Counted from the first letter of the stretch, positions 8,891-55,577 are shown. The stretch is DNA of 64,000 nt from an uncultured Thermococci archaeon (GCA_964549615.1 CAZJVP010000048.1:4896-68895); one strand, 5' to 3'. A program made the numbers and translations. The notes: a model not told the origin generated them from the letters alone.

Positions 8891-9167
8891 GCAGATAATG
8901 CCAACTCCGAGTTTTCCGGAAATCCTCAGCGCTTATCACCTCCGATCACTCCGGGATTGGAACTCTTGATCTGTGTTCGTCGATACGCTGCGGAACAAGC
9001 CGTTCCAGCGGTCTGGCCGGACGGATTCGGGCAGAGCGGGCGCGCGAACCGCCCAGTGGCATCGGATGAGATCCCCCAGTTCCTTCTCGTCGGCCTCGGA
9101 TGCGGCAAATGCGCGGCATAAGCAGTTTTATCCCATGGATTCCCGCTGCGGGAGCGGAGGCCAATCC

Positions 9168-34570: not shown

Positions 34571-34774
34571 ATGATCATACCGATTAGATGCTTCACATGC
34601 GGCAAGCTGATAGGGGACAAGTACGAGGCTTACAAGGAGCGGGTTGGCTTCGGGGAGAAGCCAGAGGATGTGCTACGTGACCTCGGCATCAACCGCTACT
34701 GCTGCAGAAGGATGCTGATCTCGCACGTCGACCTGATGGACGAGGTCATAAAGTACAAGAAGCCATCGGCCTAG
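34571..34774 (+). CDS. rpoN: DNA-directed RNA polymerase subunit N (Rpo10)
   Basis: [12 protein letters not shown] ... RYCCRRM zinc-binding motifs; 67 aa. Confidence 0.95.
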
Positions 34775-35058
34775 ACCGTCTTGAACCTTCTGTCGGGCAA
34801 AGGACCGACGTAGGGCGTGACCGAGACCTTCTCGTTCTTTGAGAGGTTGAAAACCCTGACTATCTCGGGGGCAAGCCCGATGGTCCCTGGCTCCACCTCG
34901 TCCTCGACAATCTTGCCTATGAGCGTCCCTATCTCGAAGTTTATCTGGACCCATTCGCCCGGCTCCAGTCCCATCTTCCTAATATCGTCCACGTTCATCT
35001 TAACTATGTCGCGCATGTAAGCGCTCCTTGCCGCGAACTCAAACACCCGCCCCGACAT
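34771..35058 (-). CDS. Small stand-alone double-psi beta-barrel-like protein (Cdc48/VAT N-domain-like)
   Basis: The pattern [22 protein letters not shown]...[25 protein letters not shown] resembles the two psi-loop halves of VAT-N. A strong SD (GGGAGGAGGG) lies between it and the upstream gene stop. Confidence 0.5.
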
Positions 35059-35073: not shown

Positions 35074-36288
35074 TCACTCCCTCTCGATAAGCTTGGTCAC
35101 CCTTACCTCCTTGTACAGCCGCCTCCTCACCATCAGGCTCCAGAGTAGAAAGCCCGCGACCATCGAGGTGCCGGAGACGACGAGCCATTCTGCCATAAAG
35201 ATCCAGAAAAGAGCCCTGTCCTTTGCTTCCAAGACCTCTTGGGTCATAGCGTCGAGTTCGGCCAAGAGGCTCGACAGCCCGGATCGGCACTCCTCCAGCT
35301 CCTGAACCACGTACTGCTTGTCCACGGCTGCTTTGGCCGCGCCGAGCTCGCCTAGCCTCATCTCAACCTGCCTCAGATTGGCGCCGAACCTGTCGGCGAA
35401 GTCTATCGTCGAGACAAGGTATGTCCTCCTGTAGTGGAACTGGTTGAAGAGCGCCCTTATTTCGTGTACGAGCTCGAGGTCCTGCGGGATGGGGACGCGC
35501 GCCGGGAAGTATATCAGATGCGACAGCACATCGATGTGCCACTTCCAGCGGTAGAAATCGGGCGTGCCGTGCCACTTGTGCACATATGCCACGGACCTCC
35601 CCTCGCCGTAGTCCCAGTAGACGATCACGGGCTTGTTGCGGTTGTAGGGGACCTCCGGGGACATCCTAGCCAAGACTGTGGCGCCTTCCCTCTCCCAGGG
35701 GCGGTTGTGCGCCCATATCCTTATCTCGTGCCAGGGAAGGTTGCGCATCAAGGGATGATCGCGGTACTCCTCCTCAACGATTATGTGGAAGCCGTGCTGC
35801 TCGTAGTATATCGCCGCCTTGTCGTCGACAGGGAGGATGTCCCCGATCGGGTGTAGATACCAAGAGGTGTGTCTGCCGCTGGTCGCAAAGCTCGACGAGT
35901 CGTCAGCCATCAGGAAACCCATGCCCTCGTTCCGGACCCCTTCCTTAACCCAGTTCTGAAAGTCGTCCCGCAGGTGGCTTGCATCCATCCCGTCCTCTAT
36001 GACCACATCAAAATTGTCGTAAAGCGCGCGCTGGCTTCTCGGCAGATACATTCGGAGACACCGGAAAGCCTCCTCGCCCATTGACCACGCGTGAGCCGGA
36101 ACGGGATAGTAGCTGATTCGAGGATCCTGGCTGAGCACGGGGCCTGGGTGTCCAGGGTAGAACCATGCCTTGCCGATGTGAAGCAGGCGAATCACGCCGT
36201 TGGCGTCGGTCCTTGCGTCGAACTCGCCCGATGCCTGGGAAAGTGCGATAGCGATGAGGACCGCAAAGGCGAACAGCCCTTTTCGCAC
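35074..36288 (-). CDS. Uncharacterised secreted, tail-anchored protein, family A paralog 1 (GATase1-like ectodomain suspected)
   Basis: Signal peptide MRKGLFAFAVLIAIALSQASG. Shared blocks with 43206-44429 and 48093-49394: GVIRLLHIG, LRMYLPRS, FDVVIEDG..GMGFLM, STIDFADRFGAN. Then a coiled coil and the C-terminal ALFWIFMAEWLVVSGTSMVAGFLLWSLMVRRRLYKEVRVTK. Confidence 0.8.
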   Translation of the reverse strand: MRKGLFAFAVLIAIALSQASGEFDARTDANGVIRLLHIGKAWFYPGHPGPVLSQDPRISYYPVPAHAWSMGEEAFRCLRMYLPRSQRALYDNFDVVIEDGMDASHLRDDFQNWVKEGVRNEGMGFLMADDSSSFATSGRHTSWYLHPIGDILPVDDKAAIYYEQHGFHIIVEEEYRDHPLMRNLPWHEIRIWAHNRPWEREGATVLARMSPEVPYNRNKPVIVYWDYGEGRSVAYVHKWHGTPDFYRWKWHIDVLSHLIYFPARVPIPQDLELVHEIRALFNQFHYRRTYLVSTIDFADRFGANLRQVEMRLGELGAAKAAVDKQYVVQELEECRSGLSSLLAELDAMTQEVLEAKDRALFWIFMAEWLVVSGTSMVAGFLLWSLMVRRRLYKEVRVTKLIERE

Positions 36289-36308
36289 GCGTATCGGTAG
36301 GCCTTCAT

Positions 36309-36319
36309 CTTAGAAAAAC
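36309..36319 (-). promoter_or_regulatory. TATA-like box for family A paralog 1
   Basis: The minus strand reads GTTTTTCTAAG, centred about 26 nt upstream of the GTG at 36288. Confidence 0.4.
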
Positions 36320-36395
36320 TTGCTGGTATCAGGCGCCAAGGATGCCATGGATGGGGTTTCAGGCTTGCGCGCGATTCCCCTTGACGAACCGGAAT

Positions 36396-37160
36396 TTACA
36401 CCGCGTAGCCGCCGTCCAGCACCCTTATTTCGTAGAGGATGGCCCTGAAGAGCCAAAGCCCAAAGGCGCAGGAAACCACTAGGGGAAGGAGGGCGAGAGG
36501 GCCGGGCAGGTGCTCGCTCCCGAGGGCCGCGAAGAGGAATATGGCAAAGTTGTACAGGGCATGGTACGTGACGGCCATGGCGTACCGGGTTATCCAGAAG
36601 CCCCCCAGTAACTTCTGGGTGGATATGCCGGATCCCGAGATCGCGCCCGTGGCGCCGTGAAGCGAGGCTGAGCCAAGCGACCTTACGACGATCAGCACTG
36701 CGATCGACGCCAAGCCCGCAGCCTGACCCAGGGCGAGGCTTTCCTGTTTCCAGGAAACGAAGAAGTACATGACGTTCTCAGTCGCAGCGAAACCGAAGCC
36801 TGCCGCCGCCCCGTACACAAGGCCGTCCTCGATCTCGTCGAAAAAGGGCTTGTTGCGCAACAGAAGGACGGGGAGGGCTTTGGTGAACTCCTCGAAGATG
36901 GGGGCCAGGACGACGATGCCAAGAAGCAGGGTGCTCCTCTGGGCGGCATTGGTCGCCGTCGCGTAGATATCCACGACCACCTGCCCGGCCATCTCGAGGA
37001 CCAAGGCCAAGCCCGTCGAGACGACGGCACCGAGAGCGAAAACCTCTAGGACTCTGCCGAAGGGTTCCCTTCGCGTCAGCTCTGAGCGCCTCACCCACAG
37101 AACGTAGAAAATGCATGGAACGAAGCCCATAGCGATGAGGGCCAGCTCCTCTTGGATCAC
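36396..37160 (-). CDS. PrsW-family intramembrane protease
   Basis: Polytopic membrane protein with APIFEEFTKALPV, GAAAGFGFAATENVMY and SLHGATGAISG motifs. The GTG at 37160 is preferred because a TATA box lies 26 nt upstream. The ORF-track start at 37328 overlaps the divergent GH38 gene. Confidence 0.75.
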   Translation of the reverse strand: MIQEELALIAMGFVPCIFYVLWVRRSELTRREPFGRVLEVFALGAVVSTGLALVLEMAGQVVVDIYATATNAAQRSTLLLGIVVLAPIFEEFTKALPVLLLRNKPFFDEIEDGLVYGAAAGFGFAATENVMYFFVSWKQESLALGQAAGLASIAVLIVVRSLGSASLHGATGAISGSGISTQKLLGGFWITRYAMAVTYHALYNFAIFLFAALGSEHLPGPLALLPLVVSCAFGLWLFRAILYEIRVLDGGYAV

Positions 37161-37180
37161 ACCCCGCGCCACAGGTTGGA

Positions 37181-37190
37181 GGATAAATAT
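37181..37190 (-). promoter_or_regulatory. TATA box for the PrsW gene (in the divergent intergenic region)
   Basis: The minus strand reads ATATTTATCC, centred about 26 nt upstream of the GTG at 37160. Confidence 0.45.
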
Positions 37191-37261
37191 CTTCCGACCG
37201 AGAGACCGGAAGGAGGAGCAACTCGGGAGTGTGAAACTTATCACTGCAACAGGACGGACTG

Positions 37262-40200
37262 GTGAGCATGGATCTGCCGACGGAGCTCGAACAACTGCAT
37301 GAAATGCTCGAAAGGAGTCTGCTAGCACGCTTGGAGTGGAAATGCATTGGGCTGGACGTGCCCGGCGCCCACAGGGTCGTCTTCGACGACTCCGGTTGGT
37401 CGGGCCAGGGAGCGCTGGCTGGGCGGCTGTGGAACGTCGGGTGGTTCAGGACCCAATTCACCATCCCGGAACTCCTAGACGGCTGTGCCTTGGAGGTTTC
37501 ACCGATCATGGGGGGAAGGAGTCGGGTCTTCGTCAACGGCAGGCTGATCGGGAGTTGCGGTGCCGGCGGCTCGGTGCCGACCCCGAAGGTCAGGGGCGGG
37601 AGTGTCCTCACCCTGGCAATAAGGAACGAGAATGGCTGGATAAGCTATGAAAACCCGTGCCCTGCCACCATCAGGTGTGAGCGTCAGGCAATATTGCTTG
37701 GCATCTTCGAGGAACTCTTCTTCCTCCGGAGACTAGAGCAGGCCGGCGGCCGGGAGAGTTCTGAGATCAGCAGGTGCCTTGAGTCATTCTTGGAAGCGGT
37801 TGATCGGGAGGCGCTTGCCCACGGCCAGATCGATTGTTTCGTCCAGTCCCTCGCCAAGGCACGGGACGCGCTCCTGCCAGCTGCCAATCTATTGAAGCGC
37901 TATACAATCTACGTCGTGCCACATTCCCATGTTGACCTAGCGTGGGGATGGACCTACGAGGAGACGAAGAGGATAATGAGGACGATCTTTGACCGGGCAA
38001 CCGAGCTTCTGGATGATGACCCCAACTATACCTTCGCCCAGGACCAACCGCCGGCTTACAACCACCTAGAGGGAACGGGGCTCATGGAAAAGGTCGCCCG
38101 TTACGTCGGCGAGGGCAGGCTGGACCCCTGCGGGGCGATGTACTCGGAGCCCGAGGGCAACATGCCGTGCGGGGAATCCTTCGTCCGCCAGGTAATGCTC
38201 ACCAAGAGATACTTTCAGGATAGGTTCGGCGCCGACCCGAAGGGGTGCTGGAATCTGGACTCCTTCAGCGGCCATTGCTGGAGCCTCCCCCAGATCCTGA
38301 CGAAATCCGGGGTGCGCTACTACACCTTCGCAAACTGGGGGAACCTCATCCCGGACGTGGAGTTCTGGTGGGAGGGGCCGGACGGATCGCGAGTTCTCGC
38401 CTACCATCTTCCTTGCCACTACGATAGTGCACAGATGATGGAGCACAACAAGATACTCCAAAACTTCTTTGGCTATGCTTCCAGATCCAAATTCAAGCGC
38501 TTCATGTTCCTCGACGGCGATGACCTAACTCCGCCCGTGCGCGACAGCATCGAGGGCGTCAAGTGGTTCAGCCAGTTGGCGGTCGGCCCAACGGTGAAGT
38601 TCTCCACGCCGGCGAAGTTCTTTGAGGATCTGGAGAAGGACGACCTTTCAGCGATCCCCACCTACCGGGGGGAACTCGCCCAGCACCTCGATCCTAACGG
38701 CAGCAACAACGCCGGGTCGTACACCACGCATTGCGAAGTCAAGAGAAGGAACAGGCTCTGTGAGAATCTCCTCCTGACGGCGGAGAAGTTCGGCTCCATC
38801 GCGATGCTTCTTGGAATGGAGTTCCCGAGGGCGCTCATGCAACGGGGATGGGAGGCCGTGCTCCTCAACCAGATGCACGACATCCTGCCCGGTACCGCGA
38901 TCAAGGAAGCCTATGAGGAGGCTCATCGCCGATACGATGAAGCGGAAGCGATCGCGAAGGAGACGATCGCGCTCTCCCTTGGACGGATCTCCGCAAGGAT
39001 CGATACCCGCGGCAAGGGGACGCCGATCGTAGTCTTCAATTCCCTCAGCTGGGAGAGAACCGATGTCGTTGAGGTGAAGGTCACCCTCGATCACACCTAC
39101 AAGGCTTGGCCTAGGATCACCGGGCCCGACGGAGAAGAGGCCGAGTGCCAGGTGCTGCACGACAGCCGGGGAACGTTCGACAAGACCAATAGAAGCATGA
39201 CCATCCTCTTCGTCGCAAGAAAGGTGCCGGCCCTGGGCTACAAGCTCTACCGCCTCACCCTAGACGGCAGGCGCCCACGGTCCGCGGGGAGGGTCTCCAA
39301 GGTGAGCCAGTTCACCCTGCAGAACGAGTATCTGGAAGCCGTGATCGATGCTCAAACCGGCCTCGTCCGATCGCTGAAGCGGGGAGGGCGGGAGTTCATT
39401 TCGGGACCCGAGGGCTTCCTGTTGGTAAGGTACCTAGATAGCGGCGACCCCTGGCACATCAGGCTCGTCGGGGATGCCTCCAAGCTCATACGCGCCCAGT
39501 CGGTGGAACTTGTGGAGGCCGGCCCTGTCCGCACCACGGTGAGGATCTGCAGGAAGGATGGGAACACCCAGATCGTTCAGGAGGTGTCGTTGTGCAAGTC
39601 CGTGCCAAGGCTTACTTGCCGGACGACCTTGGACTGCGGCGACCTTTACGTCCTGTTCAAGGCCTCGGTTCCGGTCAATGTCGGTCCGGCCAAGGCCACC
39701 TTTGAGATACCTTTCAGCACGATCTCCAGAGAGGCCGCGGGCATCGACAGGCCGGCGCAGAACTGGGTTGATTTGTCCGACGGGGAGCGCGGCCTCGCCG
39801 TCCTGAACGATGGCAGGTACGGCTACGACATAGATGGCGGAAGAAGGATCAGGTTAACGTTGCTGAGGAACCCTAAGGGACATCGCTCCAACGAGGGAAC
39901 GGACTCCGGCCCCCACTCAACCTCGCTGGGTCTCTTCCCGCATGAAGGTGACTGGACATCCGGGGTAGTCCGCCAGGGCCTGGAGTTCAACAACCCCCTG
40001 CTCTGCCACGTGGACAGCCCGCACGAAGGCGACCTTCCCACCGCTTTGTCGTTTCTCTCCCTCTCGGCCCCCAATGTGGTGGTGTCCTGCCTTAAGCCCC
40101 ACGAGGACTCCAAAGACCTTGTCCTGCGCATCTATGAGGCCCACGGATCCCGTGTCGACGATGCCGGGATACGGGGCAGGATCGGGTTCGAGGGACTGGA

Positions 40201-40318
40201 GGAGATCGACATGACGGAGAGGGAAACGGTGGGGACGCTTGCTGGGAAGGCACCCGTTGTGCTCTCCCCTTATGAGATCAAGACCTTGAGGATGAAGGCG
40301 CCGCGGATTCGATTTTGA
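37262..40318 (+). CDS. Glycoside hydrolase family 38 alpha-mannosidase
   Basis: GH38 N-terminal catalytic motif YVVPHSHVDLAWGWTYEET, ~1000 aa and no signal peptide. Confidence 0.9.
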   Translation: MSMDLPTELEQLHEMLERSLLARLEWKCIGLDVPGAHRVVFDDSGWSGQGALAGRLWNVGWFRTQFTIPELLDGCALEVSPIMGGRSRVFVNGRLIGSCGAGGSVPTPKVRGGSVLTLAIRNENGWISYENPCPATIRCERQAILLGIFEELFFLRRLEQAGGRESSEISRCLESFLEAVDREALAHGQIDCFVQSLAKARDALLPAANLLKRYTIYVVPHSHVDLAWGWTYEETKRIMRTIFDRATELLDDDPNYTFAQDQPPAYNHLEGTGLMEKVARYVGEGRLDPCGAMYSEPEGNMPCGESFVRQVMLTKRYFQDRFGADPKGCWNLDSFSGHCWSLPQILTKSGVRYYTFANWGNLIPDVEFWWEGPDGSRVLAYHLPCHYDSAQMMEHNKILQNFFGYASRSKFKRFMFLDGDDLTPPVRDSIEGVKWFSQLAVGPTVKFSTPAKFFEDLEKDDLSAIPTYRGELAQHLDPNGSNNAGSYTTHCEVKRRNRLCENLLLTAEKFGSIAMLLGMEFPRALMQRGWEAVLLNQMHDILPGTAIKEAYEEAHRRYDEAEAIAKETIALSLGRISARIDTRGKGTPIVVFNSLSWERTDVVEVKVTLDHTYKAWPRITGPDGEEAECQVLHDSRGTFDKTNRSMTILFVARKVPALGYKLYRLTLDGRRPRSAGRVSKVSQFTLQNEYLEAVIDAQTGLVRSLKRGGREFISGPEGFLLVRYLDSGDPWHIRLVGDASKLIRAQSVELVEAGPVRTTVRICRKDGNTQIVQEVSLCKSVPRLTCRTTLDCGDLYVLFKASVPVNVGPAKATFEIPFSTISREAAGIDRPAQNWVDLSDGERGLAVLNDGRYGYDIDGGRRIRLTLLRNPKGHRSNEGTDSGPHSTSLGLFPHEGDWTSGVVRQGLEFNNPLLCHVDSPHEGDLPTALSFLSLSAPNVVVSCLKPHEDSKDLVLRIYEAHGSRVDDAGIRGRIGFEGLEEIDMTERETVGTLAGKAPVVLSPYEIKTLRMKAPRIRF

Positions 40319-40749
40319 AGAAGATGCACGTATCCGGGACGATACGCTGGCCGGTCAGACTTCCTGCTCGACGAGCCATAGTTTCCGAGCTGCATCCAAG
40401 CATGGAGGTTCGGGTCAACTTCCTCGGGCTCCTTCCTCTGTAGATCCGAAGGAGACTCATCCGGTGGCCGGAACCTCTTCTCCGAGGTCCTCTTCCCCGA
40501 TCTGGCTCATCTAGCGGAGAGAAGCGACAGGGAAAAGCCCAAGAGTGAAACCGGCCTGGGCTAGGCATCCCCAGCGCAGAGCACCCATGTCCCATCGGCC
40601 ATCTGGCTCCCCTTGAATCCGCTCGCTAGGTTCGTCGTGGGGAGATGGCGATACGATGATAACGGGGCCGCCTGCTTCCTAGAAGATGGCGGGTTCCGTC
40701 GAGACCTTAAATAGCGCCTTCGCCCTGGCGGAGTGACAAGGGTGTCCGC

Positions 40750-41253
40750 ATGATGATACGGTTCTACAGGAAGGGCGATTCGGAATCGATGCAAAGGATA
40801 GCGCCTCGCGCGTTCATGGGGTTGGGACTTGCCCGCTATGCCATCGACAAGGACCTTGACCGCAAACGGGTGGCCGAGTACTACGCCCGGGAGGCCTCCG
40901 GCTACGCCGAAAGGGCGGAAAGGCGGGAGAGAACATTGCGGGTGATCGTCGCAGAGGACTCCGGCAACGTGGTCGCATACATCGTGGTCGCCATCGATGA
41001 AGCCAACTCGGAGCAGTTCGGGCTCAGATGGGGCCGGATAGTGTCCCTCGCAGTCGACCCGGACCACCAGGGAAGGGGCATAGGCAAGATGCTCGTCGCC
41101 CGGGCTCTCGACTGGCTTCGCTCAATGGGCGCCGCCTACGTCGAGGTCCTCACCGACCAGAACAACGTCGCAGCCCAACGAGCATACGAGGCAAACGGAT
41201 TCCGCGCCGTCTACGCGAGCATAACGTTCTCGAGGCGCATTGCGCCTACCTAG
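40750..41253 (+). CDS. GNAT-family N-acetyltransferase
   Basis: Acetyl-CoA binding motif LAVDPDHQGRGIGKMLV and C-terminal AAQRAYEANGF. Confidence 0.9.
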   Translation: MMIRFYRKGDSESMQRIAPRAFMGLGLARYAIDKDLDRKRVAEYYAREASGYAERAERRERTLRVIVAEDSGNVVAYIVVAIDEANSEQFGLRWGRIVSLAVDPDHQGRGIGKMLVARALDWLRSMGAAYVEVLTDQNNVAAQRAYEANGFRAVYASITFSRRIAPT

Positions 41254-42331
41254 TTACCTCAGCGCTCCTGACCAACTCGTAGAGACGGTTCGCGTTCCTG
41301 TTCCTCTCGAAATGCTCCCTGATGGGCGCGACGAGCTGATCGAGCGCCTCAGCGACGGCGTTCTTCAGGTCGAGAGGATGTATTTCCCCCGCCGCGTACA
41401 GGCGCTCCAACTCCTGGTAGCTTTCAACTTCCAGATTCCCCCCGTATTTGGCAGGCCTTTCCACGCGTAAGGATCTCAGCTTCCTGAAAACTATGTATTT
41501 CGAGTACTCAAGCATGGGGTTGTTTTGCACCTCCTTGGGCGGGCAATAGGCCGCCCTGACTTTTCTCCTGATGGCCTCGGGGCTGTCGTGGACGTAGATG
41601 CAGCTCTCAGGCAGGGACTTGCTCATCTTGGAGGTTATCGCCGCGTCCATTCCCGCCTCCGTCTCGAAGCCCTCGCCCTTCCTCAATCCCTGGAGGCCCA
41701 TCAGTATGTGGTGGTGGACCGCCACCGGCTTCCAAAGCCCGATCTTGGGACCGATCTCCCTTGCGAGGATGTTGGCCCTTCTCTGGTCAACGCCGAGCTG
41801 GCATATGTCGCACTTGAGTTGGAAGATGTCGGAGACCTGCATGGCAGGGTAGAAGAACTGCGCCACGTCCTGGAGCTCGCCCTGCTTTCGTCCCATGATC
41901 GTCAAGCAGCGCTGCATCCTGCTGAGCGTGGTGTTCTTTGCAATGAGGATGACCCGTTTCCAGTACTCGCTGTCCATGTTCTCACTGGCCCAGAGGACCT
42001 CGACCCTGTTGGTGTCGACGCCAGCCGCCTTCCAGACCTCGATGAAATACTCGCCCACCTTCCGGATCTTGTCGAGATCCCCTCCCATCTTGTTGTTGAT
42101 CCACGCGTACCAGTCGGCGAGCCAGAGCTTGAACCTGATCCCAGCATCCAAGAGATCCTGAAGGTTTATCGCCCTGTAGAGGGCGAAGTGTATGGGGGCA
42201 AGCCCCGAGGGCTCGAACCCATCATAGGCTATGGGATGATCCTTGCTCTCAAGAAGCTGCCTGAGCTCCTCCTCCGTTATGATTTCCTCGCCCACCCTTC
42301 TGATGAGCTCAAGCTTCGTCTCGACGTCCAT
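41246..42331 (-). CDS. tyrS: Tyrosine--tRNA ligase (archaeal type)
   Basis: IAYDGFEPSG, KMSKS and the C-terminal block HPLDLKNAVAEALDQLVAPIRE closely follow the archaeal TyrRS pattern. Confidence 0.85.
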   Translation of the reverse strand: MDVETKLELIRRVGEEIITEEELRQLLESKDHPIAYDGFEPSGLAPIHFALYRAINLQDLLDAGIRFKLWLADWYAWINNKMGGDLDKIRKVGEYFIEVWKAAGVDTNRVEVLWASENMDSEYWKRVILIAKNTTLSRMQRCLTIMGRKQGELQDVAQFFYPAMQVSDIFQLKCDICQLGVDQRRANILAREIGPKIGLWKPVAVHHHILMGLQGLRKGEGFETEAGMDAAITSKMSKSLPESCIYVHDSPEAIRRKVRAAYCPPKEVQNNPMLEYSKYIVFRKLRSLRVERPAKYGGNLEVESYQELERLYAAGEIHPLDLKNAVAEALDQLVAPIREHFERNRNANRLYELVRSAEVTR

Positions 42332-42385
42332 GTTACATGCAGCCTCCGCCGCTGTGATTAGTGTTTCCCAGGGCGGGCCTCGGAC

Positions 42386-43213
42386 CTAGCTCGACTTAGC
42401 GCCGATCCAGTTGATGGCCATGGGGCCAGCGCCGAACCCGGTCTCCGTGGTTACGAACTGGATGATCCCAGCATGGCCAAACATGTACAGCGTGTCGAGG
42501 GTTACCTCCAGATGCACCCTCTCCCCCGCCGAGAGGTCATGGAAATGAAGCATGCCAAACGGGGCCTCGGCGATGCTGGCGCACGGCTCCTCGCCCGGGG
42601 CGGACTTGGACTTGAAGCAGATCGATTCCCTGGGGGATGTGTACCTGATGCTGCTGATGACAGTGTTCCGCGAGAAGAAGAAATCCCTGTACCCGCAGAA
42701 TGTGCTAACCCTGCCTCCCTCGCCGACGAGGAGTGCGTAGACCGTGTAGACCGACCCAAGGATCTCCTCTCCTGCTAGGGCGGCCATAGCGTCGGTGAAG
42801 TCGAAGAGGTACATCTTCCCGCCGAGTTCCAGCTCAAAGACTTGGTATGTCGGCTGTCCACCCAACTGGGCCTGCATGGAGTCGAGGAAGGCCTTTGTCT
42901 CCCTAAACCTAGGCACGTTCGCGATCATGTCCTCAAGACTGCGCCCCGTCGTCTCATTCCACGGCTTGACCAGCGGCACGGAGAGGTTCACTAGGAAATG
43001 AAACCGAACTACTAGGTCCGGAAGGTCGCGGACCGCCATCAAGTCTATGGAGTAGCTAGGCGACCCGGGCACGCCGCCGGGGATGTCGCTAGGCGTGCGC
43101 TGGGCGAGGACCCTGACGACCTCCTTCTCACGGATGCCGAAAGTCAAGAAGGAGACAAGCGTCGTGATGACGAGTATGATTGCAAGGAAGCCCGCCAGGC
43201 GCCGGTCAACCAC
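42386..43213 (-). CDS. Uncharacterised N-terminally anchored membrane protein, family B paralog 1
   Basis: The N-terminus MVDRRLAGFLAIILVITTLVSFL parallels MDRQLIGVLAVSLVAATLVTLI of 49398-50177. The GTG start overlaps the family A stop by 8 nt (GTGGTTGA), and the SD GGGGAGG lies inside the upstream gene. Confidence 0.7.
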   Translation of the reverse strand: MVDRRLAGFLAIILVITTLVSFLTFGIREKEVVRVLAQRTPSDIPGGVPGSPSYSIDLMAVRDLPDLVVRFHFLVNLSVPLVKPWNETTGRSLEDMIANVPRFRETKAFLDSMQAQLGGQPTYQVFELELGGKMYLFDFTDAMAALAGEEILGSVYTVYALLVGEGGRVSTFCGYRDFFFSRNTVISSIRYTSPRESICFKSKSAPGEEPCASIAEAPFGMLHFHDLSAGERVHLEVTLDTLYMFGHAGIIQFVTTETGFGAGPMAINWIGAKSS

Positions 43214-44429
43214 TTAAACCGCCTCCCCTCGTCACCTTGACCTCCCTGTAGAGCCTCCTCTTCACCATCAGCGTCCAGACCACGAATCCGCATATGAGCC
43301 CAGTCGCGCTGACGACGAGCCATTCCGTGATGAAGATCCAGAACAGGGCCAGATCCCTTGCCTCGAGGGCTAGGTCATAGGCCTCCTGAAGCATCCCGAA
43401 GACCTCATCTGCGATCTGCTTGCTCTCCACAAGTTCCAGGTCGACGAAATGCTTCTTGGCTTCCTTCAGCCGCGCGTCGGCTTCCGAGAGCTTCCTGTCG
43501 ACCTTCCTCGTGTCGGCGCCGAACTTGCTGATGAAGTCGATCGTCCCGGTGATCACCTGGGTCTCGTCGTAGACGTCCTTGAAGCGCTGGCGGGTGGCGT
43601 GAAGGAGGTTGATGTCGGAAGGGGGCGTAAGCCCCGCTAGGAAATACACCATATTGCACACGAAGTCAGGATAGTGTTTCCAACGGATGAATCCCCGGCC
43701 AGCGGATCCCCCCCGGAAGCCGGGCGCTGATGCAAAGAACCGGCCCTTGCCCACGTCCCACCAGACCCACCCAGGGTCCCTGAGGCCCACGCCGGTGCCA
43801 CCCAGGCGGATCACCTGCGAGAGCTCGTGCGCACCCTCCTTCAGTTCGACGACGTTGTACCCGCCGAAGACGTTGTGCTGCTCATACTCGTCCCAAGGCA
43901 CGCTGCGTATGAAAGCATCATCTGGAGCCGTGACGACGGTCTTCCCGTCGGGGCCGTATGTGCTTGTGCACTTGACCGGCATCACCTCGCTGAGAACCGT
44001 TGCATCCCACGAGGGGAAGCCGGCACCGCCCCCGAACGACTCAAATCCGCCAGCCATGAACAAGCCAAGCGCGCTGTCCCTGCAGGCGTCGGCCATCCAC
44101 TGGATGGTGTTTGGAGGAAAGGCGTACCACGTCGTATCATCCAAGCCGATGATGTCGCAGCTAGCCACCATGCTGGCCTTGGTCCTGGGCATGTAAAGGC
44201 GCATGGCCCTCTGAACCAGGGTACTTGGAAGGCCGTACATGTTCCCGGCGATGGGCGTCGCGGAGATCAGGGGGTCGAATTTGTAAACCTGGTAAGGGCA
44301 TGCCGCAAACGGCTGCCCGATGTAGATGACCCGGATGACGCCGGTTTCTGGATCGCGCTTCAACTCCTTGCCTGCTGCCGTCGCAAGGAGGAGGATAGCA
44401 CATATGCCCAGAACGGCCCCCGGCCGCAT
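43206..44429 (-). CDS. Uncharacterised secreted, tail-anchored protein, family A paralog 2
   Basis: Signal peptide MRPGAVLGICAILLLATAAG. Blocks GVIRVIYIG, MRLYMPRT, CDIIGLDD..LGLFMAGG and GTIDFISKFGAD, then a coiled coil and the C-terminal ALFWIFITEWLVVSATGLICGFVVWTLMVKRRLYREVKVTR. Confidence 0.8.
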   Translation of the reverse strand: MRPGAVLGICAILLLATAAGKELKRDPETGVIRVIYIGQPFAACPYQVYKFDPLISATPIAGNMYGLPSTLVQRAMRLYMPRTKASMVASCDIIGLDDTTWYAFPPNTIQWMADACRDSALGLFMAGGFESFGGGAGFPSWDATVLSEVMPVKCTSTYGPDGKTVVTAPDDAFIRSVPWDEYEQHNVFGGYNVVELKEGAHELSQVIRLGGTGVGLRDPGWVWWDVGKGRFFASAPGFRGGSAGRGFIRWKHYPDFVCNMVYFLAGLTPPSDINLLHATRQRFKDVYDETQVITGTIDFISKFGADTRKVDRKLSEADARLKEAKKHFVDLELVESKQIADEVFGMLQEAYDLALEARDLALFWIFITEWLVVSATGLICGFVVWTLMVKRRLYREVKVTRGGGLSG

Positions 44430-44456
44430 TGGTCCGAAAACACGCCGATTTGTCGA

Positions 44457-44466
44457 TTTAAATATT
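44457..44466 (-). promoter_or_regulatory. TATA box for family A paralog 2
   Basis: The minus strand reads AATATTTAAA, centred about 32 nt upstream of the ATG at 44429. Confidence 0.45.
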
Positions 44467-44577
44467 CCGGCAATGATATGATGACTGGAAGCGAAGGACA
44501 GCCGGTCTGCCCGGTGCTGCCGCGGCCGTTGAACGGCTAGGCACCCCCCGGGCTTGTTCCTCGGCAGAGGCCCATCC

Positions 44578-44934
44578 TCACTGGATCAGCTCCGCAAACA
44601 GCGCCCTAACCAGCCCCTTTTCCGATCTTCCCGCGCGAAGGGCGCGAAGCACTGAGTTCGCAAGATCGTCCAGCGACACCCTGGTTACCACCTCGTAGTA
44701 GAGAGGATCGATCTTGACCCTTGTAACGATTCTGCAAGGGACCGGTACGACGGTGTACGCATCAACGCCATAGCTGGAGGGGACGTCCGGAATCCGGCGC
44801 ATCAACAGCCTCCCGGCCTCCTTCGAGAGCGACGCCGCTATGTCGTCGCGGATCAGAAGGTTGTGGCGAAGCCCGGCGACGAACTCCCGGATCCGCAACT
44901 CACGGTCAATGAGGATGTCCATGACATCGCCCAT
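44578..44934 (-). CDS. Hypothetical protein (start uncertain)
   Basis: Protein-like from MGDVMDILIDRELRIREFVAGL... to ...VRALFAELIQ. The longer ORF-track version (to 45141) begins with an Arg/Ser-rich low-complexity region. Confidence 0.35.
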   Translation of the reverse strand: MGDVMDILIDRELRIREFVAGLRHNLLIRDDIAASLSKEAGRLLMRRIPDVPSSYGVDAYTVVPVPCRIVTRVKIDPLYYEVVTRVSLDDLANSVLRALRAGRSEKGLVRALFAELIQ

Positions 44935-45366
44935 CCTCCTTTCCCTCCGGTCAAGGACCCATCCTGGGCTCTTTGATTCGAAACCGTCCTGGGGCGGCAT
45001 TGTGGTAGCGTTCGGCACCACGAATGAGTCTCCCCTGAGCTGGGCGAGCCTAGCATCCAGGTACACGGTTCTTGATCGGAGGAGTGATCTCTGACGGGCT
45101 CGAAAGCACCATGCCCTCAGGCTAGATCCTGAGAATATCACGTCCCCTATCCTCGCCTTGCCGTGCCTGCGCGCCGACAGCAGGCTTCTGACCGAGATCA
45201 GATCGGAAGGATGTTCGGACGACGTCCGGCCCCGCTCCGACGAATCGTTTTGGCAACAGCCGGATAACGGTTTCGGTCCTTGGAGCTGCTGCGGAGGCTG
45301 GGAATCTACGCCGTCAGGGGTGGAAAATTATATCAGAAGGACGCCAGATCGAGCGGGCAGGTCCAA

Positions 45367-45612
45367 ATGGCCGATGACCAACAGACCTGCCCGAAGTGCG
45401 GCGTCCCGATGCCCGTGGCAGACCAGATGATGCTCGTCGAGCCCAAGCACATCAGGATCGTCCTTCTATACCGGTGTCCGGAGTGCGGGACGACCGTGGA
45501 CTGGAAGGCACGGGTCGAAAAAGGAAAGATGCCGTGGGTGAGGAAGACCGTCTACCGTGGTGAGTCGCTAGGCTTCGCGTTTCCCAAGAAAACGGCCAAA
45601 CCAGAGGCTTGA
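45367..45612 (+). CDS. Small zinc-ribbon protein
   Basis: CPKCG ... CPECG pairs; 81 aa from the ATG at 45367. Confidence 0.5.
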   Translation: MADDQQTCPKCGVPMPVADQMMLVEPKHIRIVLLYRCPECGTTVDWKARVEKGKMPWVRKTVYRGESLGFAFPKKTAKPEA

Positions 45613-45747
45613 GGAATCAGGCCCAGCCTGAGCAAAGTCCGCGTCAGCCGCATCCGCCCTGTCTTCGCTTGACCCGCGATGTCCTTGCCTTGGAGGCCAA
45701 TCACGCTCGTTTCCATTTTTCAAAGCCTCTGATGTCGCGATGGCTCG

Positions 45748-46779
45748 ATGCGACCGGCCATTCAGCCGAGCATATGCCATGTCCGACCGGGCTCGCGCCA
45801 GCAATTCATCGTCAGCGGCCTCGAATCCCTTGGTCCCACCTGGCTTGTCGACGGGATAGCTGGAGGAAATCGTCGGGTCGGCACCATCACCCCCGAGGGA
45901 TTGTACTCCTCTCCGTCAACCCCACCAAGGGGCGAGATCGTAATCGAGGCACGCCTCGACCGAGGAAGCACGAAGGCGGCCTGGGCCACAGTGCTCTTCG
46001 ATTCCCTGTCTCCGTTCTACCGCCATGCAGGCTTCTGGAAAGCAAGGATCGACGAGGAGCGATGCATCTCCTCGGCACACGGCATCTGCATGGACGGCGC
46101 CGACCGGATCCTGATAGTGGACACGAGCTTGTCCAGAATATTCCGCTTCACGTCCAAGGTCAAGTTCCTGGGAGAGATAGGGTCGGGAAAAGGCCCGGAA
46201 CCCGGGCAGCTCGACGGGCCGCGGCACGCAAAGGTCAGCCCCTCCGGTGAGGTCTACGTGGCCGACGGCAACAACGGACGCGTCCAAGTTTTCGACCGGG
46301 ATGGGCAGTTCCTACGTTCATGGGCCAGGAAGGGAAAGGGGGAAGGCGAGCTGCTCCGTCCGCACGCCTTGGACCTCGCCCCCGACGGCTCCGTATTCGT
46401 CGTCGATGTCGACAACAGCAAGGTCGTCGCATACGACCAAGAGGGCCGCCTGCTATGCAGCTGGGGACGGCACGGCACTGGTCCGGGCGACTTCTGGGCG
46501 CCGCACAGCTTAGCGGTGGACCCGAACGGCGATGTATTCGTGGCGGAGTACTTCGGGCGTGTCCAGAAGTTTACCCCGCAGGGGCGGTGCATCGCACGCT
46601 TCGCCAACCCTTTTCGCGACGGCCAGCGCACCCACGGAGACTACAGGTACCATGCCATGAACTGCGATTCCCGGGGGAACGTGTATCTCATGGCTCGAGA
46701 TAGCCTGGCGGGTATGGCGAAAAGCGTTGATAAGTACAACAACAGCGGGGATTTCGTCACGAGATTGAAGGCTCCTTAG
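45748..46779 (+). CDS. NHL-repeat beta-propeller protein with N-terminal Ig-like segment
   Basis: Repeats GRVQVFDRDGQFLRSWARKG, SKVVAYDQEGRLLCSWGRHG, GRVQKFTPQGRCI and PHALDLAPDGSVFVVD. No signal peptide seen. Confidence 0.85.
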   Translation: MRPAIQPSICHVRPGSRQQFIVSGLESLGPTWLVDGIAGGNRRVGTITPEGLYSSPSTPPRGEIVIEARLDRGSTKAAWATVLFDSLSPFYRHAGFWKARIDEERCISSAHGICMDGADRILIVDTSLSRIFRFTSKVKFLGEIGSGKGPEPGQLDGPRHAKVSPSGEVYVADGNNGRVQVFDRDGQFLRSWARKGKGEGELLRPHALDLAPDGSVFVVDVDNSKVVAYDQEGRLLCSWGRHGTGPGDFWAPHSLAVDPNGDVFVAEYFGRVQKFTPQGRCIARFANPFRDGQRTHGDYRYHAMNCDSRGNVYLMARDSLAGMAKSVDKYNNSGDFVTRLKAP

Positions 46780-47322
46780 GGGCAACCGCGGATGGTGTGC
46801 GAGGCCGCGGCCACAGGTAACGCGGGCACCCTCTTCGTCGCAGGTTCTTCCAATGAGCAGGCCGGAGTTTCTATCTTCGTTCCCTGTTAGCAGTAAGCGA
46901 AAGAACGGCGCGTGAAGATGCGAGGATGCCCCGACTCCAACGCCGACCACTGAGCTCGAGCCTTGTCGTGACGAGATGCGGTGTTTGAGAATCTTGGCAC
47001 GCTTGGGGTAGCAAATGTCGTTGCCGCGCGAGTCGACTAGCTGCCTTGCGGCGGGTGCATCTCGTCGGGTAGTTTACCGCGGTTGGCCGGACTCCGCAGT
47101 TGCGGCGCGGCGATCTCAAGCCGTGGTCGGCCCCCACTTGGTGCCCCGGGCGGCCTAACGGAGGATCAAGACTTAGTGCCCCGCGGCCGCGAGCGCTCCC
47201 GAGGCGTCCATTCGGGCAACCGTTTGGGACATGTGGCCCCGGGAATAGCACCTGCGCATCCGGGGCAATAGAACGCTTCGGACGTTGTCCGCGAAGGTTT
47301 AAGAACTCAGCGATGCAGTTGG

Positions 47323-47946
47323 TTGCGGAGAGAGAGGTCAATGGATCTCAATACTCTAACGAACTTCGTGCTCTTGATCTGTCTCGTTATCTTCATCGTC
47401 GTCCTCGCCTATCGGGCCTTGTCCGGTTTTGCCGCCAGGCCGCGATACCCAAGGGCCCAGCCGGCGACGGTTCGCTACATTGGAAGGGCGGCAGGGACGG
47501 AGCCGCAGGTTCTTGAGGAGCAAGTCGCCGAGAAGGAAGCTCTTGCTCCGGAGGAACCGCCGATGTCTGTGGAAGCCACGATTCCACAGGAGCCCACGCT
47601 GGTGCAGCGTCCGGTCGCCGCGCAACACGCGCCCGGGCCCCGAAGAGCCACAGTTTTTCCCTCCATACTCGCAACCGAGCTTCTGTCCCGCGCTGCTGAC
47701 GAAGACGCGGAGGAGATCCAAAGGATCGCCAAGGAGCTCGTTGACTACTGCGTGGTTCGCGGGAGCGCCGCCAACGTCAGGCCGGAGGTTCTCGAAAAGC
47801 TTGCGGTTCAGTTCGCAACCTTGGAGGTGGCCGTCAGGAAGGCATCCATCGGCGCGGACGGGGAGGCACGCCCAGTCCCGGATGACCTGCGGTCAGATCT
47901 TTTCCGTGAGGCGTTCCGGCTTTTGGCGTCGCAGGCCAAGCGCTGA
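47323..47946 (+). CDS. Hypothetical membrane-anchored protein
   Basis: TM FVLLICLVIFIVVLAY followed by an acidic/helical soluble region. First gene of a long co-directional series. Confidence 0.45.
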   Translation: MRRERSMDLNTLTNFVLLICLVIFIVVLAYRALSGFAARPRYPRAQPATVRYIGRAAGTEPQVLEEQVAEKEALAPEEPPMSVEATIPQEPTLVQRPVAAQHAPGPRRATVFPSILATELLSRAADEDAEEIQRIAKELVDYCVVRGSAANVRPEVLEKLAVQFATLEVAVRKASIGADGEARPVPDDLRSDLFREAFRLLASQAKR

Positions 47947-48061
47947 GGCGGACGAAGAACGCGATCGACCTTCGCTGGCTACGGGGGATTTCGATTCCCA
48001 TAACCGCAGAACAGTCGTTGACGAGAGCAAACCGTACCATGGGGCTATCAAGCTGCACATC

Positions 48062-48069
48062 ATTTTTAG
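48062..48069 (+). promoter_or_regulatory. TATA-like box for family A paralog 3
   Basis: ATTTTTAG, centred about 28 nt upstream of the GTG at 48093. Confidence 0.4.
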
Positions 48070-48092
48070 GTCAAGGCTGAGTTCCGGAGACC

Positions 48093-49394
48093 GTGGACGC
48101 CGAGACCCGGACCTGGGCCGGACAGATAGCCGTTTCCCTGCCTTGGCGAACCTGCGCACCTCTCTTCAAGCCTAGGCACGTGGCCGGGTTCCTTGTTATC
48201 TGGGTCTTGGTCGGAGTGTCCCCGGCCCGCAGCGCGCCCGCCGAGCGGATCAAGATCATACTCACCGGCAGGGCGTACGAGGGCTCCCTGATGAGGAACT
48301 GGTTCGTAAACGAACCCATGGCGGATCCCATCGCGATACCGACCCGCGATGTTCCGGGCGGGATTGAGGAGGGCAGGCGGTACGTCAGGATGTACTTCCC
48401 TCGAACCTACGAGCGGCTTGCGGAATGCGACTTCGTGATCTTCGAGGGAACCGAGATGGTGCACTTCTCGCACACGCAACAGAAGTGGCTACATGATGCC
48501 ATAAGGGACCATGGCATGGGTGGCCTGAACTCCAGGAGCGTGCTGAGCGCCGTTTACTATGGCCAGTGGATTGCATCCGTGACCCAGCTGGCCTTCCCCA
48601 ACGACGTTGACGCCGTCATCGCGGGTCCGGGGTGGAAGTTCGGCCAGACCATGGAGATAGTGCTGAACGATGACCCGAGCCTCAGGCCAGTCCTTCTCAT
48701 GTTCAAGGACAAACCCATCAAATGGAAGCTTACAAACTACGACGCGATGGTCGTCGTTCCGAGACCCGGTGCCACGATCTGGTCCTGGATCAAAGGACCG
48801 TTCCCGGAGCTTTCGATCCCATGGCCGGGGTACACGCCGCACTTGATCTCTTGGACGTATGGCAACGGAACGACCTGGACCTGCCATGACAGGACAGTCA
48901 ACTGGTGGCAGGACATTCGCGATGCAAATCCATACGGGCTGGACATGATAATGAACATGATCCTCTACAGCACCGGGAGGGATCTTCCCCAGGACATAGA
49001 CCTCATTCATTCGATTCGAAGGCGGTTCACCGAGTTTGGGACGAGGAAAACGCTCGTCATCTCGACGATCGAGCTCGGACAGAAATTCGGTGCAAGCATG
49101 ACGCGAGCGGAGGCGAGCTTAACGGAGCTGGAGAAGCTTTACCTCGCGGCCAGGGAGGCCTATGTGGAGCAGAGGGAGGTCGAGGCCTCCGATCTCGTTA
49201 ACCGGCTCATAGAGGGCTCAAGACATGCCAACGAGGTGGCCATGGAGGAACTCAACCGGGCCCTGCTGTGGATCCACGTCATCAACTGGCTCGTGGTGTG
49301 CGGCACGTTCATGGCCTCTGGGTTCGTGCTCTGGAGCCTGATGGTCAGAAAGAAGCTCTACAGGGAAGTGGCGTCGACGCGGCTGGGAGGCTAG
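48093..49394 (+). CDS. Uncharacterised secreted, tail-anchored protein, family A paralog 3
   Basis: Hydrophobic N-terminal segment VAGFLVIWVLVGVSPARSAPA. Blocks ERIKIILTG, VRMYFPRT, CDFVIFEG..HGMGGLN and STIELGQKFGAS, then a coiled coil and the C-terminal ALLWIHVINWLVVCGTFMASGFVLWSLMVRKKLYREVASTR. Confidence 0.8.
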   Translation: MDAETRTWAGQIAVSLPWRTCAPLFKPRHVAGFLVIWVLVGVSPARSAPAERIKIILTGRAYEGSLMRNWFVNEPMADPIAIPTRDVPGGIEEGRRYVRMYFPRTYERLAECDFVIFEGTEMVHFSHTQQKWLHDAIRDHGMGGLNSRSVLSAVYYGQWIASVTQLAFPNDVDAVIAGPGWKFGQTMEIVLNDDPSLRPVLLMFKDKPIKWKLTNYDAMVVVPRPGATIWSWIKGPFPELSIPWPGYTPHLISWTYGNGTTWTCHDRTVNWWQDIRDANPYGLDMIMNMILYSTGRDLPQDIDLIHSIRRRFTEFGTRKTLVISTIELGQKFGASMTRAEASLTELEKLYLAAREAYVEQREVEASDLVNRLIEGSRHANEVAMEELNRALLWIHVINWLVVCGTFMASGFVLWSLMVRKKLYREVASTRLGG

Positions 49395-49397
49395 GGG

Positions 49398-50177
49398 TTG
49401 GACAGGCAGCTCATCGGCGTGTTAGCGGTGTCTCTGGTGGCCGCGACATTGGTCACGCTCATTGCGGCGGCGGAGAAGGAAAGGATTCTGGTCTCGGGGG
49501 TTTTCTGCCCGGAGTACATGGCGCAGTCGAGCGCCGAGTACTGCTTCGGCGTAAGCTTCATCACGACTCGGAACCTTGCGGATGTTGAGGTCCGGGCTTG
49601 CACCCTTTCAGGCCTGACGCCGGAATCGTTTGGTCTGAAACCCGACGAGCAGGATCCCGAGCTCTACCCGCCTATCAGTATCCTCAGGGAGGAATCATCC
49701 CGGTTGGGCGTCGAGATCCAAGCTAGCCGGTTCGAGCTCAACGGTGACTCATCGTCGCAGCAGATCGTCTACTACGATTTTCTCCCGCTGTTGGAACGTC
49801 TCTTCATCGATCCGGCGCGCTTGCCGCTTGGTCGGATCACAACCTGCTATGGTTTCTTCCGCCGAGCGGGGAAGCTTGAGACTTGTTTCAAGGGTAGCGG
49901 TGAGATCTTTCCGGCTGAAAGCTCCTCGCTCAACAAGATCCTCGTAGAGGTGGACGGGCGCCCGCGGTACGGCTGGGAGAGAGGCACTGGCCCTGAGAGG
50001 CAGGCGCGAGGGATCAGAGTGGGAGAGGTTACCAAGGGCAGCCGAGTGGACGTCCTGTATTACATAGACGGACGGTGGGCGAGAGTGGGATCGCTACTTT
50101 GGAAGCTGGACGTGATTGCGGGAGGCGAGGTCCTCTACTCGAGGGTGCGTCTTATCAACGTGGCCGGCTCTGCCTAG
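49398..50177 (+). CDS. Uncharacterised N-terminally anchored membrane protein, family B paralog 2
   Basis: The TTG start lies 3 nt after the family A stop, with the SD GGGAGG inside the upstream gene. N-terminal TM as in 42386-43213. Confidence 0.65.
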   Translation: MDRQLIGVLAVSLVAATLVTLIAAAEKERILVSGVFCPEYMAQSSAEYCFGVSFITTRNLADVEVRACTLSGLTPESFGLKPDEQDPELYPPISILREESSRLGVEIQASRFELNGDSSSQQIVYYDFLPLLERLFIDPARLPLGRITTCYGFFRRAGKLETCFKGSGEIFPAESSSLNKILVEVDGRPRYGWERGTGPERQARGIRVGEVTKGSRVDVLYYIDGRWARVGSLLWKLDVIAGGEVLYSRVRLINVAGSA

Positions 50178-50582
50178 CCGCCGACGCGGTTTGGACAAGC
50201 GCTTGTCCTCTGCCTTGCGTCGAGCTGGGCGAAAAACCAGGCAAAATGCTTCTCTCGGCTCTGCCAGCCGTGTTAGGTAAAGGGACATATGTTACACTTT
50301 TCCGCCTCCCCGCTCCGGCGGCCTTCCACCGAGCGATCAAGTTTGGTATGCCCATCGATGCACAGGGCTCCGAACAAAATATTCGGGAGGCGGGTTGAGT
50401 CCTTTCTCTCCTCCGGGGAGGAAGAAACCTCAAGAAGTCAGTCCGCCCATTCGAGATATTCGGTCGCGGGCCGGAGCGCCATGACTCCCCATGACTCCTC
50501 GGACTGAGGCATGGAGAGTCCTCTGCAGAGTGTAACATATGTGGGTTTACCCAACACTCGGCTCTGCCTGCCAGCCGAAATG

Positions 50583-50590
50583 CTTTTAAG
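50583..50590 (+). promoter_or_regulatory. TATA-like box for the second FG-GAP gene
   Basis: CTTTTAAG lies about 35 nt upstream of the ATG at 50622. Confidence 0.4.
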
Positions 50591-50621
50591 TGCGCATACT
50601 CAGTGGATAGGCGGCGGTTCC

Positions 50622-53607: not shown

Positions 53608-53628
53608 ATGGATATACTATCCAAGATC

Positions 53629-55576: not shown

Positions 55577-55577
55577 G

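Follow-up and report, generated by a model that had tools for sequence, protein, structure and literature searches.

A large family of exported, membrane-anchored proteins with a PF07090-type ectodomain in one lineage of uncultured archaea

A 64,000-nucleotide stretch of DNA from an uncultured archaeon (GCA_964549615.1, CAZJVP010000048.1:4896-68895; referred to here as the window) encodes three proteins, paralogs A, B and C, all members of a very large family of paralogous type I membrane proteins that is confined to one archaeal lineage. Their shared architecture comprises a signal peptide, a PF07090 ectodomain of ~240 residues, a helical stalk of ~90 residues, a transmembrane helix and a basic cytoplasmic tail of ~16 residues. 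This structural and genomic description is put forward with high confidence. As to function, we tentatively suggest that the family may supply the cell surface with a diversified set of non-enzymatic modules for binding or scaffolding. The architecture and family together with such a function form the best overall explanation of the data, to which we assign a probability of roughly 55%.

Paralog A (35074..36288, minus strand) has 404 residues and displays a signal peptide, a PF07090-type α/β ectodomain, a helical stalk, a transmembrane helix and a basic tail. Paralog B (43206..44429, minus strand, 407 residues) served as the reference for the structure model. Paralog C (48093..49394, plus strand) represents a divergent subfamily in which the transmembrane Glu is replaced by Asn (WIHVINWLVV); its start is uncertain, as translation may begin at GTG 48093, giving 433 residues and a long n-region, or at GTG 48180, giving 404 residues, and either choice retains the hydrophobic signal segment. 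Pairwise blastp comparisons yielded E values of 5e-62 for A and B (30% identity over 409 residues), 2e-44 for A and C (30% over 351 residues) and 1e-33 for B and C (25% over 424 residues), and a family hidden Markov model (HMM) recognized A and C with E values of 3.8e-144 and 2.2e-104, respectively. An earlier, sequence-only reading of this DNA had proposed three paralogs of one architecture, and these open reading frames (ORFs) are indeed present and homologous; tblastn revealed no fourth copy in the window. The same reading had described four sequence blocks shared by the ectodomains. Blocks 1, 2 and 4 occur as written, whereas block 3 is slightly off for B, which has ALGLF instead of G[ML]G, and block 4, [SG]TI[DE][FL]..[RK]FGA, is located in the AlphaFold model within the helical stalk, outside the α/β domain. 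The public call for B (entry P0001) has 385 residues and begins 22 codons downstream, such that the signal peptide is lost; the longer 407-residue form is favored by orthologs of 402-408 residues.

The ectodomain of B (residues 28-268; 43626..44348, minus strand) is a PF07090 α/β domain with an R-x-Y-x-P-R motif (R77, Y79, P81, R82). The Pfam model PF07090, GATase1_like, matches A with 28.0 bits (2e-6) and B with 31.3 bits (2e-7), both passing the gathering cut-off of 27 bits, and paralog C alone has no Pfam match. Database homologs of B mostly carry a precomputed PF07090 assignment; none in the orthologue group of C does, and a single weak 290-residue match at the foot of that search has one. 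A family profile of 58 sequences, compared with the PDB, identified 2gk3/STM3548 (5e-22, profile positions 33-267), 3soz/STM1381 (9e-20) and 3rht (3e-18), with alignments of ~235 positions. The AlphaFold model of B, built from the same alignment, has a predicted local distance difference test (pLDDT) score of 93.7 and a predicted TM-score (pTM) of 0.87, and places the α/β domain at residues 32-264. A Foldseek search of the PDB with this model returned the same three entries, 3rht, 3soz and 2gk3, at the top (E values of 4e-11 to 1e-9, target-normalised TM-scores of 0.64-0.72), followed by a ThuA-like protein and then by the non-catalytic GATase1-like domains of glycoside hydrolase family 42 (GH42) and GH112 enzymes. 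The likeness to the ThuA-like structure 4e5v, with an E value of 1.5e-5, is at the fold level only. Thus, the earlier guess of a class I glutamine-amidotransferase-like fold was correct. Pfam gave no match of A, B or C at E ≤ 1 to ThuA (PF06283), ABC_transp_aux/GldG (PF09822) or DUF4350, and a Foldseek comparison of the B model with viral structures yielded nothing (best E value 0.37). Conserved ectodomain positions, in B numbering, are R77, Y79, P81, R82, D92, W141, D255, D272, H277 and R280, and variable loops lie at about 157-170, 185-195, 205-218 and 235-247. Only this family has the R-x-Y-x-P-R motif, which is missing from 2gk3.

PF07090, formerly DUF1355 and corresponding to COG5426, is an already known domain family with structures solved since 2006; the source of 3rht is Planctomyces limnophilus, now Planctopirus. 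The description of the proteins as an uncharacterised family therefore does not hold for the domain, which is in Pfam with solved structures, but stands for its function. NCBIfam models gave nothing for A, B or C. The authors of a 2026 paper about STM3547, the gene next to STM3548, report finding no functional studies of the latter (PMC13432705), and this paper was the only item to surface in a literature search on PF07090, DUF1355, STM3548 and COG5426, which returned no function.

The ectodomain appears to be enzyme-like but non-catalytic, as the sequence-only reading had also supposed. The Cys-His-Glu triad is not conserved: alignments of 58 and 115 sequences contain no conserved Cys, and the α/β domain contains neither a conserved His nor a conserved Glu. 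The position of the nucleophile elbow is occupied by Gly, Ser or variable residues, with Ser in 67 of 115 paralogs (58%) and the preceding Gly-Gly in ~60%. These observations make it unlikely that the ectodomain is a divergent class I amidotransferase-like hydrolase that acts on an extracellular substrate, the paralogs differing in substrate. Such an enzyme would be in keeping with the class I amidotransferase fold, with the PF07090 signature GG-x-x-S-F-x-G at the elbow position, with the invariant polar residues R77, Y79, R82, D255 and D272, and with the purifying selection acting on each ortholog (see below). Yet besides the missing catalytic residues, the closest structures after the PF07090 proteins, those of GH42 and GH112, are non-catalytic accessory or oligomerisation domains.

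Of 110 family members, 104 have a Sec-like N-terminus, as read from the sequence, in which a basic n-region is followed by a hydrophobic h-region of 12-15 residues and a c-region of small residues. In B, residues 1-20 (44370..44429, minus strand) form the Sec-type signal peptide MRPGAVLGICAILLLATAAG, similarly assigned and presumably cleaved. At the other end of the chain, 103 of 115 members possess a transmembrane helix that leads into a basic tail, 14-29 residues long (median 16). Both the signal and the conserved helix with its basic tail had been anticipated; the term tail-anchored, however, was wrong, since an N-terminal signal accompanies the C-terminal transmembrane helix and the proteins are therefore of type I.

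The juxtamembrane helical stalk of B (residues 269-358; 43356..43625, minus strand), delineated by the model and by conservation, contains the conserved P270, D272, H277 and R280 and the KFGA turn. Rather than the ~80-residue coiled coil proposed from the sequence, AlphaFold gives three helices, 273-301, 308-329 and 333-402, the last of which continues through the membrane. Residues 359-407 (43209..43355, minus strand) comprise the transmembrane helix (A-L-F-W-I-x-x-x-E-W-L-V-V ... G-F-x-x-W-T-L-M-V) and the basic tail (R-R-R-L-Y-R-E-V-x-V-T-R). Conservation across 115 paralogs peaks in this segment, with 2.6-3.0 bits per column, while most ectodomain columns have 0.7-2.2 bits and the R-x-Y-x-P-R block has 2.8. 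Near-invariant anchor residues are A361, W364, E369, W370, G381, W385, M388, R391, L393, Y394 and T400. In C and its own orthologs (64-86% identity) Asn replaces the transmembrane Glu and an INW motif is kept. The mid-membrane Glu-Trp pair and the conserved cytoplasmic motif L-Y-R-E-V-x-x-T-R suggest that this segment engages in a specific intramembrane or juxtamembrane interaction and is not a passive anchor.

An exhaustive HMMER search with the C-terminal stalk and transmembrane profile found 451 clusters at 50% identity among 1.84 billion representatives. In all of the best 150 of these 451 clusters the module is C-terminal in proteins of ~400 residues or in fragments of them and is never found on another architecture, which indicates that the anchor is not used by other ectodomains. 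A profile search of the PDB with the stalk and transmembrane module alone produced only coiled-coil noise (best E value 0.055). These results bear on the proposal that the C-terminal module is a cleavable sorting signal of the PGF-CTERM/archaeosortase or LPXTG/sortase type, or is processed by PrsW, so that the mature protein would be covalently anchored or released. The tripartite layout of conserved motif, hydrophobic helix and basic cluster resembles such signals, dozens of carriers exist per genome, and a PrsW gene (36396-37328) lies directly upstream of A, an arrangement that is syntenic in the related JGI contig L001. Known sorting signals, however, occur on many unrelated proteins, whereas in the best 150 of 451 clusters this module is tied to one ectodomain. 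Furthermore, no NCBIfam model matched at E ≤ 1, curated C-terminal sorting domains included; the conservation spans the whole helix and the 14-29-residue tail, extending beyond a short signature; and PrsW does not recur beside other family loci. Processing as a sorting signal is thus improbable.

The PrsW-family intramembrane metalloprotease (PF13367, 4e-28) is encoded on the minus strand, as is A, and its position between two family genes is kept in L001. The ORF as listed (310 residues) overlaps the start of the neighbouring GH38 gene; the true start is probably ~60 codons later, since the ortholog has only 252 residues.

The distribution of N-glycosylation sequons provides independent support for an extracytoplasmic location. 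In 103 family ectodomains the pattern N-x-[ST] was observed 11 times, compared with 105.8 ± 10 expected from composition-preserving shuffles, a ~10-fold depletion (Poisson P ~1e-32). Six control patterns ([ST]-x-N, N-[ST], N-x-x-[ST], N-x-[AG], D-x-[ST] and Q-x-[ST]) gave ratios of 0.75-1.14; a seventh, N-x-C (3 observed, 7.3 expected), occurs too seldom to be informative. The sequon ratio in 147 non-family neighbour proteins was 1.1, and a 992-residue FG-GAP protein contains 8 sequons against 4.3 expected. Opposite to the main family, proteins of the adjacent c0 family, described below, are sequon-enriched, with 2.86 per protein compared with 1.12 expected. Sequon avoidance implies that the domain is exposed to oligosaccharyltransferase. 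Because sequons have been selected against, we infer that the ectodomain surface must stay glycan-free, for packing or for binding.

The sequence-only reading had pointed to a triplication within one neighbourhood; the three copies are real, but the scale was greatly understated. A scan for the transmembrane and tail motif in one genome per species, covering 185,579 GTDB species, gave 131 confirmed relatives, and all 76 loci kept from it lie in three metagenome-assembled genomes (MAGs), representing three species, labelled 'Candidatus Hadarchaeota archaeon'. When the family HMM was applied to these loci and duplicates were removed, GCA_964452145 contained at least 57 and GCA_964621445 at least 40 unique near-full-length copies (ORFs of 380-500 residues). 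Counts at all lengths, which include ORFs down to 61 residues, are 74, 54 and 15 in the three MAGs. The genes often form arrays of 3-5 copies per 13 kb, with both strands in use. Family-wide, the median pairwise identity is 28.6%, and identity within a genome peaks at 71%, so the copies are not strain duplicates. The family may rank among the largest gene families of these archaeal genomes.

The tyrosyl-tRNA synthetase (TyrRS) of the window shares 80% and 74% identity with those of the GCA_964452145 and GCA_964621445 MAGs and at most 66% with all others, these weaker matches being scattered over archaeal phyla and uninformative for taxonomy. The window organism is therefore assigned to the same lineage as the two MAGs. 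The only names found on homologs are 'hypothetical protein [Theionarchaea archaeon]' and, at JGI, 'uncharacterized membrane protein', and a literature search on surface families of Hadarchaeota and Theionarchaea returned nothing relevant. Contig L001 shares synteny with the window and contains four paralogs in 10 kb. The position of C is occupied by another paralog in L001 and by none in L161, indicating turnover. Several family genes of the related MAGs are split into two adjacent ORFs (L008 8824-10150, L020 1222-2475, L047 5300-6532 and L070 1525-2603); pseudogene formation by frameshift, or errors of assembly, probably explain these splits, which fit a birth-and-death mode of turnover.

Each paralog is maintained by purifying selection. 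For the ectodomain of B, compared with its orthologs of 79% and 63% identity, the ratio of nonsynonymous to synonymous substitution rates (dN/dS, Nei-Gojobori) is 0.12-0.13. The three mature regions of B have ratios of 0.10-0.19 relative to the 79% ortholog and 0.13-0.45 relative to the 63% ortholog; in these comparisons dS is ~1, which is near saturation. Diversifying selection in the ectodomain, raised by the sequence-only reading, was thus not seen between orthologs. Identities to orthologs in related genomes are 66-71% for A, 58-79% for B and 64-86% for C.

The same data weigh on a third alternative, in which the proteins are variable surface antigens or virus-receptor decoys whose diversity results from an arms race. 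The very high copy number, the tandem arrays on both strands, the split ORFs that suggest pseudogenes and birth-and-death, the greater variability of the ectodomain relative to the anchor, and the variation in gene content at the position of C between related genomes would all be expected of such a system. Nevertheless, orthologs are 58-86% identical with ectodomain dN/dS of ~0.12, the paralogs are old, as their low median identity indicates, and no repeats or switching cassettes were noticed. We regard this alternative as less probable than either an enzyme or a sorting signal.

Clustering of neighbour ORFs in the related loci identified one family, c0, as the most frequent neighbour of the family genes, with 23 ORFs in 22 loci. 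The window contains two members, which the earlier reading overlooked and which are described here as co-transcribed with their family genes: dB (42386..43213, minus strand, 275 residues), the first 8 nt of which overlap the end of B, and dC (49398..50177, plus strand, 259 residues), which starts 3 nt past the stop codon of C. In 13 family genes, window B included, a c0 gene on the same strand starts between -126 and +50 nt from the stop codon; dC raises this number to 14. Three more c0 ORFs are arranged tail-to-tail with family genes at two distinct places (L003 and L027 are the same locus). A c0 HMM built from the related loci finds dC with an E value of 1.6e-21; direct blastp of dB and dC gives 7e-4 over the N-terminal 77 residues only. 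No Pfam match was found for dB, dC, other c0 members or the c5 family described below, nor any NCBIfam match for dB and dC.

Over 25 c0 members the N-terminal helix has the consensus M-x-D-R-R-L-x-G-[IF]-L-L-I-x-L-V-x-S/T-T. The AlphaFold model of dB (pLDDT 83.4) shows this helix followed by a β-sandwich, and its best Foldseek match is the S. islandicus archaellin 8cwm (E value 2.6e-4, probability 0.99), with a TM-score of only 0.27. Inspection for pilin features revealed a near-invariant Gly before the helix, Ala, Val or Ile at position -2, and charged residues at -4 and -5. In dB and its orthologs a W-N-E-T sequon (W85, N86, E87, T88) is nearly invariant.

A further family, c5, usually adjoins c0 and has no member in the window. 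Its proteins have ~330 residues, with a signal, an α/β domain and a C-terminal transmembrane helix, and are distantly related to the main family (hhalign probability 92.8%, E value 3.8e-7). The c5 loci are L013 3538-4530, L071 4145-5146, L011 8599-9594, L016 10514-11437, L063 988-2094, L066 12734-13126, L006 9726-10781 and L035 7095-8300.

If the family consists of surface binding or scaffold modules, each diversified ectodomain would bind a different extracellular ligand or partner. The likeliest ligands would be glycans or glycan-processing enzymes, favored because the window encodes glycoside hydrolases: a GH4 enzyme (659-2113), a GH38 α-mannosidase (37262-40318) and a GH127 β-L-arabinofuranosidase-like protein (61905-63773), together with FG-GAP/λ-carrageenase-like propellers (8973-11951 and 50511-52079). 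The binding or packing face would remain free of N-glycans. The invariant transmembrane helix and tail would dock all copies to a single shared membrane partner, to c0 or to one another, and the mid-membrane Glu-Trp may pair with the conserved Ser/Thr-Thr of the c0 helix. A more speculative and on balance improbable extension is that the family and c0, the latter possibly pilin-like, together form an undescribed archaeal surface apparatus, in which dozens of interchangeable glycan-free ectodomains would be mounted on a common membrane platform through the Glu/Trp transmembrane helix, creating a substrate-capture or enzyme-organising array.

Several points weigh against a binding or scaffold function. 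As no PF07090 member has a known function (PMC13432705), homology to this family transfers none. The ligand, partner and oligomeric state are all proposals, and residues R77, Y79, R82, D92, D255, D272 and R280 may form a pocket or a domain interface. Given that dS is near saturation, local positive selection may act in loops. A c0 gene adjoins only ~10% of family genes, and c0 is therefore not an obligate one-to-one partner. Copy numbers are MAG-based, and two of the three MAGs are binchicken co-assemblies, as judged from their isolate names. Sulfatases (PF00884; 13 ORFs in 12 loci near family genes in the related MAGs), URO-D-like proteins, GFO/IDH/MocA oxidoreductases and ABC ATPases recur in the neighbourhoods, but not demonstrably above genomic background.

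The gene neighbourhoods also bear on whether the proteins could, like GldG/ABC_transp_aux, serve ABC-2 type exporters as accessory subunits, which is very improbable: the fold class and membrane anchoring are in common, and an ABC ATPase or ABC-2 permease lies within 1-4 kb in several loci (for example L002 and L038), yet there is no Pfam match to PF09822, the ABC ATPases, counted as 17 ORFs in 13 of 81 sources, form no fixed operon with the family and show no demonstrated enrichment, and the nearest ABC genes in the window are more than 6 kb away. An artefact is excluded.

The window is archaeal by gene content and order, with genes for ribosomal proteins L18e, L13 and S9 followed by RpoN, and with further archaeal-type genes for a thermosome, a class V FBPase and an RPA-like protein; its GC content is ~60%. 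Pfam confirmed the neighbouring FG-GAP (50511-52079) and Reg_prop (52125-53390) proteins reported previously, and an NHL propeller is encoded at 45748-46779. A 95-residue ORF (34771-35058, minus strand) directly downstream of A, found at the same position in L001 (17103-17390), has weak Pfam likeness to β-barrel domains (Molydop_binding 1e-4, CDC48_N 7.5e-3). It was considered as a partner of A and rejected, being conserved only at that syntenic position, lacking a transmembrane segment and being unrelated to c0. Positions 53608-58677 encode a squalene-hopene-cyclase-like/prenyltransferase-like protein, a DUF4430 protein, CbiQ and a double ABC ATPase (ECF-type transporter), a cluster that is conserved in synteny with L001 and L161.

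This lineage amounts to an unusually instructive natural experiment on the orphan PF07090 domain, which is here exported, anchored, amplified, kept under purifying selection, purged of sequons and, for some copies, accompanied by a partner gene. In Pfam, NCBIfam and the searchable literature we found no description of the exported stalked architecture, the near-invariant anchor, the at least 40-57 copies per genome, c0 or the sequon avoidance. These features point to properties that can be tested, namely location outside the cell, a functional face free of glycans and a common interaction within the membrane. The organisms appear to live on complex glycans. Should the family capture ligands or organise surface enzymes, it would represent a new type of archaeal cell-surface system, and an array with c0 would provide the first functional setting for PF07090.

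The solved PF07090 proteins share with the family a homologous α/β domain and the signature GG-x-x-S-F-x-G ... L-P-V. They are soluble proteins of ~250 residues annotated as cytoplasmic, whereas the domain of the present family is exported and joined to a stalk, a transmembrane helix and a basic tail; unlike the solved members, it is present in this lineage in dozens of copies per genome and carries its own R-x-Y-x-P-R motif. The ThuA-like (PF06283) proteins and the non-catalytic middle or accessory domains of GH42 β-galactosidases and GH112 phosphorylases have the same triad-less fold (Foldseek E values of 1.5e-5 to 1e-3) and an association with carbohydrate metabolism. They show no significant Pfam sequence match to the family and are cytoplasmic or contained within a larger enzyme, in contrast to the stand-alone ectodomain described here. 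Proteins of the GldG/ABC_transp_aux (PF09822) and DUF4350 types possess membrane-anchored, non-catalytic GATase1-like domains outside the cytoplasm; the present family differs from them in having no Pfam match to either, no fixed ABC-2 operon and an anchor that is arranged differently. Archaeal type IV pilin-like proteins and archaellins resemble c0 in that an N-terminal hydrophobic helix precedes a β-sandwich, but c0 is without the canonical [KR]-[GA] prepilin-peptidase site at positions -2/-1, and its structural similarity to 8cwm is low, as noted above. The proposed surface array, if it exists, would be a functional counterpart of the Sulfolobus bindosome or of the Sus-like glycan-binding proteins of Bacteroidetes.

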